Shown in pieces: positions 26,125-32,486 of a stretch of 43,538 nt of DNA. Under the pieces are notes generated by a model. That model searched no databases. It was not told the origin of the DNA and was given only the letters and a program-made list of their open reading frames with translations. The DNA is taken from positions 1 to 43,538 of the forward strand of contig DATCWN010000146.1 in NCBI GenBank assembly GCA_036566285.1. Direction: 5' to 3'. A program made the translations under genes and the position numbers. The stretch comes from Hanamia sp. (lineage in GTDB: Bacteria > Bacteroidota > Bacteroidia > Chitinophagales > Chitinophagaceae). How positions within the stretch are numbered: the stretch's first letter is position 1; the number at the start of each line of letters is the position of its first letter.

Positions 26125-26685
26125 TCAAACCGCACTCCAGTTTTCTCCCTTTTTAATTCTATAAATGGTCATCTCACTTACCTTATACTTATCCGCAATT
26201 TGTTTGTGAGTAAGCTTTCGGCGCGGATTTGCCAACGCAGTTTTTATACTTTTTACCTGCGTTGCATTTAATTTCAATCCTTTGGTTCTTGATTTTTGTA
26301 CCTTTTTGTATGCCAATCTTTGCGGGTTTTTTTGCTGATGTTCAATCACCTCTTTTTGCGAAACCCATTTTAAATTTTTAGCCTGATTATCGGCCTTATT
26401 GTGGTTGACATGGATAACAAATTTCTGTTTTGGAGAAGTTCTTTTGTTAAACGCTTTAGCTACTTCGCGATGAAAATAAATGGTTCCGTTGTTGCCATCA
26501 ATATGTAGATTTAAAGTTTTGTAACCGGAGGTAAATGAGCCTTGCAACAGCTTTCCATCTGCAAGAATATCTTCTTTGTAACTTGCCGCACGCCCATGAG
26601 AAGAAATGGCGTATTTATTTCTCAAAAGTTTATGGCCCTTAAACTGGAAAGGCTTCCATATTTCACCATTAATTTTTTTGATCAT
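26125..26685 (-). CDS. NUMOD4/HNH-like protein with a C-terminal helix-turn-helix
   Basis: EIWK..Y.ISS.GR (NUMOD4-like); FHREVAKAF..VIHVNHNKADN...NLKWVS (HNH_3-like); KL....VK.IK...QIADKYKVSEMTIYRIK.G.NW HTH. Confidence 0.75.
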   Translation of the reverse strand: MIKKINGEIWKPFQFKGHKLLRNKYAISSHGRAASYKEDILADGKLLQGSFTSGYKTLNLHIDGNNGTIYFHREVAKAFNKRTSPKQKFVIHVNHNKADNQAKNLKWVSQKEVIEHQQKNPQRLAYKKVQKSRTKGLKLNATQVKSIKTALANPRRKLTHKQIADKYKVSEMTIYRIKKGENWSAV

Positions 26686-29624: not shown

Positions 29625-30044
29625 ATGGCCTTTAAAAATGAAATAGTATCTCCGCAAAATATTCCGCAAATGAGGAAACATCTTTTGCAAGAGCAATGGA
29701 AAAGCACTCATAATAAACTACCCGGAAAAATTGCCATTCCTTCTCCCAAAGGATATATTTTTATATCGGCTCTCGAAATCTTATACTGTCACTCTCAAAG
29801 CAACTATACCGAATTCTATCTTACCAATAAAACTAAAATTATTTCAAGTTATACCTTAGGGCTGTATGAAGATATTTTGAACGACCTCAATTTTTTCAGA
29901 ATTCACCGGTCTTGTATGATTAATCTGGAGTATTTAAAATTATTTAAGAAGGAGAATGGCGGATCTGTAGTTATGAGTGATGGACACGAGATCAAAATAT
30001 CACGCAGTAACAAAGTAAATTTCATGAAGTTATTTAAGGAATGA
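29625..30044 (+). CDS. Stand-alone LytTR DNA-binding domain protein
   Basis: ILYC.S.SNYT, FFRIHRS.MINL, V.MSDG...ISR; no receiver domain. Confidence 0.8.
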   Translation: MAFKNEIVSPQNIPQMRKHLLQEQWKSTHNKLPGKIAIPSPKGYIFISALEILYCHSQSNYTEFYLTNKTKIISSYTLGLYEDILNDLNFFRIHRSCMINLEYLKLFKKENGGSVVMSDGHEIKISRSNKVNFMKLFKE

Positions 30045-30308
30045 AATTTCTGAAAACCTTGTTACCGATTGGATTTTCAAATTAATTTCTTTTTGCTTTT
30101 TTCCCTAAGCTATTCCTGCAAAGAACCGGCATCCATAATTTCTATTCAATAAATGAAATCAGGTTATTCAATAAAATTTAATTAAAGGATTATAAAAAAA
30201 AGCTTGTTTTGCTATCCCAAAAATCCTTCCTATAAATTTCTTTCTCTCTCTTTCTCTGGAAATACTAAGAATTTTTAAACACTTCTTCATCATTTAAAAA
30301 TTTTTATT

Positions 30309-31508
30309 ATGCAGACAACATTTATTAAATCAAGATCAATTTTTAACATGAATGGATTAACCTTCATAAAAATTGAAAGTCTTTTTCTAATTGCAATCCT
30401 TTTATTTTTTGCTTCCTGTGTAAAGAATCATGACCATCCTTGCGCTGAGGATACTCCGGTGATAAAAGTAAAAGTTATGGCGACGGGATTAAACAATCCA
30501 CGGGGATTAAAGTTTGGCCCCGACGGGAACTTGTATGTGGCAGAAGGGGGGATAGGTGGCACCCAATCTTCCACCGGATGCGATCAGGTAATTCCGCCCA
30601 TTGGCCCTTATACAGGCAGCGCCACAGGCGGACGCATTTCAAAAATTAGTTGGAACGGAGAGCGTACCACTATGGTTGACAATTTACCCACCAGCCAAAC
30701 CAGCGCTGAAAGTGGCGCACTCGTTAGTGGCGTGGCCGACGTAGCCTTTATAGGCCGCAATCTTTATGCGATACTCGCTGGTGCGGGCTGCTCCCATGGA
30801 GTTCCTTCTTTGCCCAATGGTATCGTAAGAATTAAAGGTTATAATAATTGGTCATTGATAGCTGATTTAAGCGCCTGGCAACAAGATCATCCTGTTTTGC
30901 ATCCTGAAGAAGATGATTTTGAACCCGATGGCACCTGGTATAATATGATAACCGTGAACGGAAATTTTTTCGCAGTAGAACCCAATCATGGTGAATTGGT
31001 AAAAGTAAATGCCGGCGGGAAAATTAGCAGGGTACTTGATATTTCCGCCAGCCAGGGCCATATTGTTCCTACTGCTCTTGCGTTTGACAGAGGAAATTTT
31101 TATGTCGGCAATCTGAATCCGTTTCCCATTGTTGATGGAAGCTCCCATATTTATAAAATAACTCCCGAAGGGGAAATATCTATTGTCCAATCTGATTTCA
31201 CCACCGTATTGGGAATTGCTTTTGACGAATGGCATAGAATGTATGTATTGGAAAATACCACCGGCAATCCTTTCCCTACACCCGGTACAGGAAGGGTTAT
31301 AAGAATTAATGATTCCGGCACGCGCGATGTAATTGCTTCAGGTCTTAATCTGCCTACCGGCATTACGTTTGGCCCCGATGGAAAATTATATGTATCTAAC
31401 TGGGGATTCGGGCCACCGGCAATAGGAGGCGGACAAATTCTTCAGATTACAGTCAAAAACTGTGAAGGCCAGGACTTGCCATCTGCACCCAGGTTTGGGA
31501 AAGATTAA
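30309..31508 (+). CDS. ScyD/ScyE-like beta-propeller lipoprotein
   Basis: Lipobox FASC; ATGLNNPRGL.FGPDG.LYVAEGG.G, VPTALA, GL..PTGI.FGPDG.LYVSN.G repeats. Confidence 0.75.
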   Translation: MQTTFIKSRSIFNMNGLTFIKIESLFLIAILLFFASCVKNHDHPCAEDTPVIKVKVMATGLNNPRGLKFGPDGNLYVAEGGIGGTQSSTGCDQVIPPIGPYTGSATGGRISKISWNGERTTMVDNLPTSQTSAESGALVSGVADVAFIGRNLYAILAGAGCSHGVPSLPNGIVRIKGYNNWSLIADLSAWQQDHPVLHPEEDDFEPDGTWYNMITVNGNFFAVEPNHGELVKVNAGGKISRVLDISASQGHIVPTALAFDRGNFYVGNLNPFPIVDGSSHIYKITPEGEISIVQSDFTTVLGIAFDEWHRMYVLENTTGNPFPTPGTGRVIRINDSGTRDVIASGLNLPTGITFGPDGKLYVSNWGFGPPAIGGGQILQITVKNCEGQDLPSAPRFGKD

Positions 31509-31641: not shown

Positions 31642-31687
31642 AAATAAAAAATAAAACCCTTACAAGTTAATACCAGTAAGGGTTTTA
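31642..31687 (-). terminator. Intrinsic terminator downstream of the tRNA-like RNA
   Basis: 12-bp stem taaaacccttac/gtaagggtttta (31652-31687) followed on the - strand by TTTTTTATTT. Confidence 0.75.
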
Positions 31688-31700
31688 ATGTTTAAAGTTG

Positions 31701-31874
31701 CTGTAGGGGAAGGGTTCGAACCTTCACGAGGCAGTTAGCTATAACACAAAGAAAGTTGAGTGGTCAACCCTGGTCGTTCAGATTTTCATCAGAGCGGCTC
31801 TATGCTACGTTTATCCTGTGCTCCTCACCCCCGAGACAAGAGGGCATGTCTGCCAAAAATTTCATCACCCCACA
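31701..31874 (-). ncRNA. tRNA-like RNA (GUC anticodon) with a ~102-nt structured variable-arm insertion
   Basis: Acceptor TGTGGGG/CCCTACA + G73; D arm ATG-AAATTTTTGGCAGA-CAT; anticodon arm CCCTC-TTGTCTC-GGGGG; T arm GAAGG-TTCGAAC-CCTTC; insertion 31726-31827; no encoded CCA. Confidence 0.8.
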
Positions 31875-31896
31875 ATATTTAAGAACTAATCTGATG

Positions 31897-31928
31897 CAAA
31901 TCTAAATACTAAGCCTTTATCAAACAAA
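31897..31928 (-). promoter_or_regulatory. Promoter of the tRNA-like RNA
   Basis: TAGATTTG (-7) at 31897-31904 and TTTG (-33) at 31925-31928, 20-nt spacer. Confidence 0.7.
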
Positions 31929-32012: not shown

Positions 32013-32486
32013 ATGGCTGCAAAGTTTAATATTGATAAACTCGATTTACAGATCATCCAGGAAATGTTGGAAAATGCTGAAACACCTTATGCCGAGCTGG
32101 GCAAAAAACTTTTTGTAAGCGGTGGTACCATTCACGTTCGCATCAAAAAATTGGAAGAGCTCGGTATAGTTAAAGGTAAAAGATTAAAAGTAAATCTAAA
32201 ACAATTAGGTTTCGACATTACCGCATTCGTGGGAATTTTTTTAGAAAAAAGTTCTTTATATGATGTGGTCGCCAAAGAATTGGAAAAAATTCCTGAAATA
32301 GTGAGGCTGAATTATACCACAGGAAATTACAGCATGTACATCGAAATTGTTTGTAAGGATATCAATCAGCTACGAGGAATTCTGCACGATGATCTGCAAA
32401 AAATAAAAGGCATCGAACGCACGGAGACGCTCATTTCACTTGCAGAAAGTTTTAATAGAAGTGTGAAAGTGAGTGATGAAGAATAG
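32013..32486 (+). CDS. Lrp/AsnC family transcriptional regulator
   Basis: IDKLDLQI....TPYAELGKKLFVSGGTIHVRIKKL..GI HTH; YTTGNYS..C; L.KI.GIERTETLISL, close in pattern to AsnC. Confidence 0.93.
   Translation: MAAKFNIDKLDLQIIQEMLENAETPYAELGKKLFVSGGTIHVRIKKLEELGIVKGKRLKVNLKQLGFDITAFVGIFLEKSSLYDVVAKELEKIPEIVRLNYTTGNYSMYIEIVCKDINQLRGILHDDLQKIKGIERTETLISLAESFNRSVKVSDEE

Follow-up and report, generated by a model that had tools for sequence, protein, structure and literature searches.

On the minus strand of a 43,538-nt contig of Hanamia sp. (DATCWN010000146.1; this whole stretch is called the window below) lies a cloverleaf whose variable region alone is 102 nt long, and the question raised by this locus is what such an RNA does. 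An earlier note, made from the sequence alone, had proposed a stand-alone tRNA mimic carrying an extra binding domain. Comparison with homologues revealed a conserved tRNA-shaped RNA gene with a large folded arm, carried by many Bacteroidota and phages and missed by standard finders. Its recognition marks, its regulator neighbour and its gene co-occurrence suggest that it is likely to be a reusable carrier on which aspartate would be turned into asparagine off the ribosome.

A tRNA-like RNA gene overlooked by standard finders

The tRNA-like RNA is a 174-nt gene present in one copy in the genome (31701..31874, minus strand, tRNA positions 1-73), delimited by the cloverleaf pair list, covariation and covariance model R1. 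The cloverleaf is present where the earlier note had placed it, as is the 102-nt variable region (31827-31726). The 7-bp acceptor stem (5' strand 31868..31874, 3' strand 31702-31708) has U1 opposite A72 (31702) and G2 opposite C71, and is followed by the discriminator G73 at 31701. The D arm (31846..31865) is of the tRNA-Leu type, with a 3-bp stem, A15 (with U48), G18-G19 and an extra nucleotide 20a. The anticodon arm (31828..31844) has a 5-bp stem (31844-31840/31832-31828) and the 7-nt loop UUGUCUC, in which GUC occupies 31837-31835, U37 31834 and C38 31833. The variable region (31726..31827) is followed by the T arm (31709..31725), with G49-C65 and A51-U63. The gene ends G-C-A-A (C74 at 31700), so CCA is not encoded.

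Folded by itself the RNA is no more stable than its shuffles (z = -0.11), and the evidence beyond chance is therefore comparative. In the tRNA core, 97.6% of cells were paired compared to 52-58% in slid controls, and 13 of 28 pairs were changed on both sides, with covariation in the acceptor, D and T stems. Two of the three D-stem pairs were changed on both sides, and the D-stem layout is that of the genome's own tRNA-Leu genes. A covariance model (R1) made from 33 homologues scored the window RNA at 131 bits and most of the family above 95 bits, clear of ordinary class II tRNAs at 50-63 bits. The next-best matches of the model were class II tRNAs of 84-88 nt, with Leu anticodons in the three that were read. 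One 184-nt match (G049) was rejected as a partly duplicated tRNA-Leu.

ARAGORN found no gene in the window, and an Rfam scan of the window at E <= 5 gave chance matches only, with no match to an intron family; relatives of the RNA did not match Rfam either. RF00005 did not detect the long form and scored the short forms below its gathering score, and ARAGORN labels the 92-97-nt short phage forms tRNA-Asp. Resemblances to a hammerhead, a c-di-GMP riboswitch, a CsrA site and a tetraloop receptor found no Rfam match. The Rfam and ARAGORN checks proposed earlier thus recovered no family or tRNA gene, and the collection of homologues with its covariation check supported both the core and a revised arm fold, bearing out a conserved stand-alone tRNA-like RNA outside the Rfam families.

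In the Hanamia assembly (572 contigs, 98.7% complete), tRNA-Asp is encoded by a normal gene, tRNA-Leu by five genes, and a tmRNA is present as well. Genes for tRNA-Asn, -Glu and -Trp were not found in the assembly, probably through incompleteness, and tRNA-Asn was taken from relatives for comparison. Like tmRNA and YrlA (bacterial Y RNA), the RNA joins a tRNA-like domain to an extra domain, but it keeps a full anticodon arm and has no Rfam match. Identity with tmRNA was rejected, as there was no RF00023 match and the genome has a separate tmRNA; the earlier note was right on this and in holding that the insert is no anticodon-loop intron. A canonical decoding tRNA was also rejected: the long form departs from the rule of U33 with a purine at 37, and RF00005 and ARAGORN miss it. 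No Ro60 gene was found among the 12 neighbours scanned in the window. Elsewhere in the window, a NUMOD4-HNH endonuclease gene with a C-terminal HTH (26125-26685, minus strand) lies directly downstream of a gene for a 693-aa DNA ligase-like protein.

The variable arm is built from nested modules

The arm has the same order in 33 long forms: P1, a 4-nt bulge, P1b, an internal loop GAYAAA/CUAA, P2, a variable hairpin and a conserved GGUYGACCA hairpin. In the window, all on the minus strand, these are P1 at 31826-31823/31731-31728 and, after the bulge, P1b at 31818-31816/31734-31732, the conserved internal loop GAUAAA/CUAA at 31815-31810/31738-31735, P2 at 31809-31798/31751-31739 (9 of 12 pairs changed on both sides), the variable hairpin with its GAAA cap at 31796-31775 and the conserved GGUUGACCA hairpin motif at 31769-31761. 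Over the whole structure, 96.7% of cells were paired and 21 of 44 pairs were changed on both sides, a level reached by none of 500 shuffles; the sequences are related, so arm shuffle counts are not probabilities. The fold first drawn for the arm was partly replaced. Its basal GAGG/CCTC stem and GAT-GAAA-ATC cap stand, and the TAGC/GCTA pseudoknot falls within an ordinary covarying helix. The stems AGCACAGG/TTTGTGTT and GGGTTGA/TCAACTT were unsupported in the 33 homologues (64% paired, a level that 445 of 500 shuffles reached).

The variable region ranges from 7 to 141 nt among homologues, the arm growing by nested modules; the proximal module is kept down to ~40 nt, and the 92-97-nt phage forms have a plain arm. 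The earlier proposal had placed the function in the extra domain. Against this, the invariant marks sit in the tRNA part and the length of the arm varies; the part that survives is a possible role of the conserved internal loop as a binding site. The arm may block the ribosome, bind a protein at this loop or serve in assembly.

Promoter, terminator and transcript

A putative Bacteroidota-type promoter lies upstream (31897..31928, minus strand), with TTTG at 31928-31925 and a -7 box TAGATTTG at 31904-31897, 20 nt apart; we take these boxes to be the Bacteroidota consensus. In 51 of 75 homologues from relatives, TAnnTTTG occurs in the 70 nt before the gene (4.3 expected from shuffles), as it does in 38 of 77 in a second collection, among the matches listed (2.9 expected). 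Downstream is an intrinsic terminator hairpin with a T tract (31642..31687, minus strand; z = -4.79), and a hairpin with a T tract followed within 80 nt of 59 of 74 bacterial copies in one collection and 57 of 77 in another, among the matches listed. The claimed promoter boxes and terminator are both present and recurrent, and a simple sigma-70/terminator scanner listed neither of them. A LytTR gene standing alone and a gene for a ScyD/ScyE-family β-propeller (29625-31508, plus strand) converge on the terminator, which may serve both directions.

Five RNA runs held only sequence of relatives, as a small share of words. Contigs of relatives from four of the runs cover 31698-31874, and short contigs cross the arm (31700-31854, 31701-31851 and 31700-31845), with no joint removing the whole of it. 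This fits an unspliced transcript in relatives, as far as contigs that give no level, strand or ends, and that leave rare splicing possible, can tell; flanks that they do not cover prove nothing. The splicing check suggested earlier was thus answered at the level of contigs. One contig stops at 31700 with one further C before the adapter, a weak hint of CCA addition.

These contigs bear on the idea that the gene is an ordinary tRNA-Asp precursor with a spliced intron or mobile element, or a decayed tRNA. The ARAGORN label of the short phage forms and the unremarkable single-sequence fold would suit it. We nevertheless regard it as hardly credible: a normal tRNA-Asp is already in the genome, the arm shows covariation and grows by nested modules, the contigs read through the arm and none skips it whole, no Rfam intron matches, and excision would leave U1-A72 and U37 behind.

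The family in Bacteroidota and phages

Of 24 genomes of the same genus 21 have a homologue, as do 5 of the 16 other families of the order. Among 301 phylum genomes, a motif search gave 31 positives, 30 in Bacteroidia and one outside. A scan of named genomes gave at least 80 loci, all in Bacteroidota among the matches listed, with hosts including Chitinophaga pinensis, Pedobacter, Mucilaginibacter, Dyadobacter, Spirosoma, Cyclobacterium and Saprospiraceae. Some genomes have two or three copies, often in tandem. Two genomes have second, unlinked copies with U73 and an altered D loop (L223 in G339, L224 in G411), and one has a copy with a scrambled 5' end (L225, G098). A 78-nt armless form (L132:1501-1578, G193) has U1-A72, G73, the anticodon loop CU-AUC-UC and a 7-nt variable loop; it does not lie beside asnC, and its genome has AsnA and GatB and lacks GlnRS.

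Viral contigs gave at least 120 matches. The 80 viral loci examined from these all matched the covariance model; none had asnC and many lay in tRNA clusters, with terminase, exonuclease, PhoH and thymidylate synthase genes among the neighbours. The sequence of the window had no match in 50,697 GenBank phage records. Of 44 long phage forms, 37 have a perfect 6-12-nt palindrome after the GGUNGACCA motif (19 sequences; 8.8 expected from a shuffle that ignores hairpins, in copies that are related), which suggests that the phage forms may self-dimerise. Bacterial arms held palindromes no more often than expected (5 of 40 compared to 5.0, and 2 of 36 compared to 3.7). The D loop is much larger in some phage copies; within the viral contigs L242-L321 several copies carry an inserted hairpin there, and in one clade the internal loop is AAUAGA/UGAA. 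In one viral tRNA cluster (L315), a 97-nt short form occurs together with matches to tmRNA and permuted tmRNA that overlap each other.

A tRNA-Leu scaffold with aspartate identity

Identity marks were tallied in 208 distinct RNAs read by a parser (75 from relatives, 77 from named genomes and 56 viral); of the 80 named and 80 viral loci, 13 and 24, respectively, were set aside as incomplete copies or as outside its rules. Five marks at positions absent from the search motif were nearly constant, the counts for named genomes being among the matches listed. G2-C71 was found in 208/208 RNAs; G73 in 206/208 (73/75 relatives, 77/77 named, 56/56 viral); U1-A72 in 205/208 (75/75, 76/77 and 54/56); G49-C65 in 202/208 (74/75 relatives, 77/77 named); and A51-U63 in 185/208 (74/75 relatives, 71/77 named). 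A15/U48 was present in 75/75 relatives. The anticodon tally is limited to 34 model hits from a draw of 150 genomes of the class, since the search motif fixed the anticodon in two sets; it was GUC in 31, UUC in 2 and AUC in 1, with C38 in all. Among the relatives, position 37 was U in 68 of 75, G in 5 and C in 2, never A, and position 33 was U in 66, G in 5 and C in 4, which by general tRNA rules speaks against decoding. UUC is found in both copies of one genome (L063, G173) and AUC in three motif matches of another (L065, G252); these changes of G34, in two lineages, are unexplained under aspartate identity.

The scaffold resembles bacterial class II tRNA-Leu in its 7/5 acceptor branch, 3-bp D stem, A15-U48, GG-N-A-G-A-C D-loop end and geometry of the arm base. 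It differs in G73 (not A73), U1-A72, GUC, a non-purine at 37 and an arm of up to 141 nt. Identity with class II tRNA-Leu was rejected, with G73 and GUC standing in place of A73 and a Leu anticodon. With tRNA-Asp the RNA shares G73, G34, U35, C36, C38 and G2-C71, and the first five are strong aspartate determinants (PMC9976931). It lacks G1-C72, which aids E. coli AspRS (PMC9976931), and has U1-A72 instead. In bacterial GatCAB amidation U1-A72 decides and the anticodon is irrelevant (PMC1635274), and G49-C65 with A51-U63 holds Asp-tRNA(Asn) off EF-Tu (PMC1904265). At each of these three pairs the tRNA-Asp of the genome is the opposite (G1-C72, G49-U65, G51-C63), and it has a purine at 37 and a short variable loop. 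The presence of U1-A72, G49-C65 and A51-U63 in the RNA and of none of them in tRNA-Asp supports a carrier for aspartate and its amidation.

The RNA also resembles tRNA-Asn of the indirect pathway in U1-A72, G73, G49-C65, a U-containing 51-63 pair and strict co-occurrence with GatB (see below). It differs from it in its Asp anticodon, its Leu scaffold with 20a, its own promoter beside an AsnC-like gene and in apparently being no decoder. The host tRNA-Asn, taken from relatives, keeps U1-A72 even where GatB is absent. The stretch 20-25 of the RNA counts seven nucleotides, as it does in tRNA-Asp, so that 20a is present. This nucleotide is a GatCAB antideterminant (PMC1635274; PMC2811023): placed in tRNA-Asn it caused a 7-fold loss of amidation, and tRNA-Asp given U1-A72 was amidated 120-fold more poorly unless 20a was removed (PMC1635274). 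Its presence counts against easy amidation of the RNA by GatCAB. Collectively, these marks suggest that the RNA is a chimera of a tRNA-Leu scaffold, an aspartate identity set, the U1-A72 determinant for GatCAB and T-stem pairs predicted to exclude EF-Tu.

G73 and a long arm would also suit SerRS, and the RNA could be a class II tRNA that accepts serine and places it at Asp codons through GUC, as a missense suppressor like the allo-tRNAs. G73, G2-C71 and the long arm are SerRS elements, and GUC is common among allo-tRNAs (PMC5389517; PMC7609411). Allo-tRNAs and selC* tRNAs share with our RNA the long arm, G73, a common GUC and neglect by standard finders (PMC5389517). They differ in their 8/4 or 9/3 branches and Sec-like D arms, and the main text of PMC5389517 names no Bacteroidetes. 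The 7/5 branch, the Leu-type D loop and arm base, C38 and GUC that SerRS does not need, and a position 37 that is mostly U and never A make serine suppression very improbable; it also gives no reason for the link to GatB.

The RNA accompanies GatB and avoids AsnB

The Hanamia genome encodes GatB, a GatA-like amidase, GatC, GlnRS, AsnRS and one AspRS; each of gatA, gatB and gatC is on a contig of its own, and gatB shares no operon with the other two. AsnA and E. coli-type AsnB were not found in this genome. It has seven untyped Asn_synthase-family matches, some of which seem to lie beside glycosyltransferase-like genes.

In the 150-genome class draw, the RNA was found in 27 genomes, GatB in 111, AsnA in 5, AsnRS in 143, GlnRS in 57 and AsnB in 19. 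GatB was present in 27/27 carriers and AsnB in 0/27 (compared to 19/150 genomes), and the single carrier with AsnA has the armless 78-nt form. G410, one of the 150, is flagged as unpublished; it adds a single count to these tallies and is not the sole basis of any claim. The 57 genomes with GlnRS leave GatCAB without its glutamine job. Fifteen of them have a stand-alone GatB, and 14 of these 15 carry the RNA compared to 0/42 of the others; the one without it is an assembly of 210 contigs in which a deeper model search was also negative. GatB lay in a 1110-1120-aa frame in 4 (RNA in 0/4) and was not found in 38 (RNA in 0/38). The deeper model search covered G208, G137, G300, G439 and G351 and found no tRNA-like RNA.

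In G368, the one of the four that was read, gatC and gatA are followed by a gene for a 1106-aa GatB-AspRS fusion whose AspRS has the His of non-discriminating enzymes (L218:2141-7124). This arrangement is a predicted one-operon transamidosome, and such a fusion is an existing annotation category. G402, G429 and G454 have 1110-1114-aa frames with a GatB match, judged fusions by their length, and G300 has a similarly weak GatB score.

The phylum draw, which overlaps with the class draw, gave the same picture: among 76 class genomes, 30 had both the RNA and GatB, none the RNA alone, 4 GatB without the motif and 42 neither. One of the 4 (G193) carries the armless form. Within three families the RNA and GatB were absent from the same genomes (3/16, 2/5 and 2/4), and in the class draw, within genus g193, family f20 and genus g162, AsnB occurs in genomes without the RNA and GatB and is missing from their RNA-bearing kin; kin are not independent observations, and Fisher values for these associations are overstated on that account. 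Five other close kin without the RNA and GatB also lack AsnB. Among genomes with GatB and without GlnRS, 79/92 lack the RNA; of the 79, all but three have neither AsnA nor AsnB, which means that the majority of the class obtains asparagine another way. In seven genomes AsnRS had no match at E <= 1e-90, a cut-off that falls narrowly below a cluster of split hits; 4 of the 7 have an AspRS without the His, and the threshold probably missed their AsnRS.

An AsnC-like gene is divergent from the RNA

Divergent from the RNA, at a distance of 138 nt, is a gene for an AsnC-like regulator of the Lrp family (32013..32486, plus strand; Pfam AsnC_trans_reg). The earlier note had overlooked this gene, as well as the connection with GatCAB and asparagine. 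Its best NCBIfam match is AsnC, at 162.9 bits and so below the cut-off of 227, and its best solved relative is 2cg4, 'regulatory protein AsnC' (E 3e-34). An AsnC-like gene lies divergently within 1.5 kb at 53/67 loci from relatives and at 46/67 from named genomes, among the matches listed, and an AsnC orthologue at E <= 1e-41 was present in 27/27 carriers compared to 5/123 non-carriers. In E. coli, asnC is divergent from asnA. AsnC activates asnA there, and asparagine abolishes the activation (PMC4482635). An AsnC-like gene divergent from the RNA is also present in the one carrier from another class (L091, G162), the sole carrier outside the class in 225 genomes, where asnC-like gene and RNA are found together; this hints at transfer as a cassette, or at contamination of the bin.

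The tRNA-like RNA was not found beside 20 further asnC-like genes, and among 20 AsnC-like loci examined 1 lay beside asparagine synthetase and 19 did not. A non-carrier (L505:1534-3742, G145) has an AsnC-like gene and asnB directly divergent from one another, just as the AsnC-like gene and the RNA are in the window. No AsnC-like gene was recovered with the query used on the 1.5-kb flanks of 15 asnA/asnB loci; the asnB neighbour in G145 was found separately.

The absence of asnC from phage loci (0/80, of at least 120 matches) would fit the idea that the RNA, charged with aspartate or with asparagine made from it, donates the amino acid to a non-ribosomal acceptor such as a lipid, a cell-wall precursor or a protein. 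A precedent is the staphylococcal non-proteinogenic tRNA-Gly, which avoids EF-Tu and serves metabolism (PMC1904265), though that tRNA is of normal size, is a peptidoglycan donor and involves no amidotransferase step. Aspartate identity and EF-Tu-excluding pairs would suit any such donor. We consider it improbable: the RNA tracks GatB and avoids AsnB, the 29 loci read without asnC in their flanks have unrelated neighbours with no recurrent transferase gene, and none was seen among 22 recurrent phage neighbours scanned.

AspRS and GatB of carriers

The His that the fusion AspRS has in common with a PDB chain labelled tRNA(Asp/Asn) ligase is absent from 34/34 AspRS of carriers. The same holds for 47/48 AspRS rows from non-carriers, so the His test is imperfect. 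Some non-discriminating AspRS also lack this His. In the anticodon-binding domain, no residue separates the AspRS of 11 carriers from that of 9 GatB-lacking kin. In GatB, a comparison of 21 carriers with 20 non-carriers gave no residue that tells the two groups apart beyond permutation, and the carriers fall at scattered places on the GatB tree.

The only AspRS of a bacterium can be of the non-discriminating type, and for Bacteroidetes that have AsnRS, GlnRS and GatCAB a route through such an enzyme and GatCAB has been put forward before (PMC4206432). Asparagine could then be made by that known route on tRNA-Asn, with the RNA as a decoy or scaffold under AsnC control that tunes or assembles the pathway and is not itself amidated. 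This would account equally for the co-occurrence with GatB and the link to asnC, the 20a antideterminant would fit binding without turnover (PMC1635274), and the internal loop and GGUYGACCA motif could be protein-binding sites. We think it unlikely, if a serious contender. It needs a non-discriminating AspRS, of which the AspRS comparisons gave no sign, and it leaves unexplained both the mutual exclusion of the GatB-AspRS fusion and the RNA (0/4) and the retention of the T-stem pairs that exclude EF-Tu. A carrier that is itself amidated would not need a non-discriminating AspRS, since it has an Asp anticodon.

Discussion

On balance, the marks and gene associations described above lead us to favour a non-decoding carrier on which AspRS would load aspartate and GatCAB would amidate it, releasing free asparagine. 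At low asparagine, the AsnC-like neighbour would switch the RNA promoter on. After trimming and CCA addition, the ordinary, discriminating AspRS would charge the RNA with aspartate through G73, GUC and C38, and G49-C65 with A51-U63 would exclude the aspartylated RNA from EF-Tu. GatCAB would read U1-A72 and turn aspartate into asparagine on the RNA. The unprotected ester would then hydrolyse (the half-life of free Asn-tRNA is 7 min; PMC1904265), making free asparagine available to AsnRS. The non-purine at 37, the variable position 33 and the large arm would prevent misreading of Asp codons, and the RNA would stand in for asparagine synthetase.

Several observations weaken this carrier: the 20a antideterminant and the larger D loops of some phage copies, the absent G1-C72, the imperfect His test, the U1-A72 kept in host tRNA-Asn, the four genomes with neither an AsnRS match nor the His, and the 79/92 genomes without the RNA; the changes of G34, the five kin without AsnB, the seven Asn_synthase-family matches and the single AsnC locus in 20 beside asparagine synthetase; and the lack of a GatB residue that tracks the RNA. 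A fuller version is more tentative, and we put it forward as a conjecture with a reasonable chance of being right. In it, a non-coding RNA cofactor would replace asparagine synthetase, uniting a Leu scaffold, aspartate identity, a GatCAB handle and EF-Tu avoidance; switched by AsnC at low asparagine, it would cycle from aspartate to asparagine to the free amino acid and give GatCAB a job beside AsnRS, GlnRS and a discriminating AspRS, and phages would carry self-dimerising versions to steer the host's supply of amide nitrogen.

We found no published description of this RNA in the open full-text literature, and subscription journals or the supplements of ncRNA surveys could hold one; the passages on unusual tRNAs in PMC7609411 and PMC5389517 do not cover it. 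The known kinds that it comes closest to are class II tRNA and tRNA-dependent asparagine synthesis, of which it appears to be a variant, with a categorically new reading left open.

The RNA is a widespread family that annotation pipelines skip, and a tRNA frame that tolerates arm inserts of 40-140 nt and avoids EF-Tu would be a useful scaffold. If the carrier is real, these bacteria would have a purpose-built RNA route to asparagine that uses neither a synthetase nor a decoding tRNA. It would also explain why GatCAB is kept in many Bacteroidota that have AsnRS and GlnRS and no asparagine synthetase, a puzzle raised in PMC4206432.
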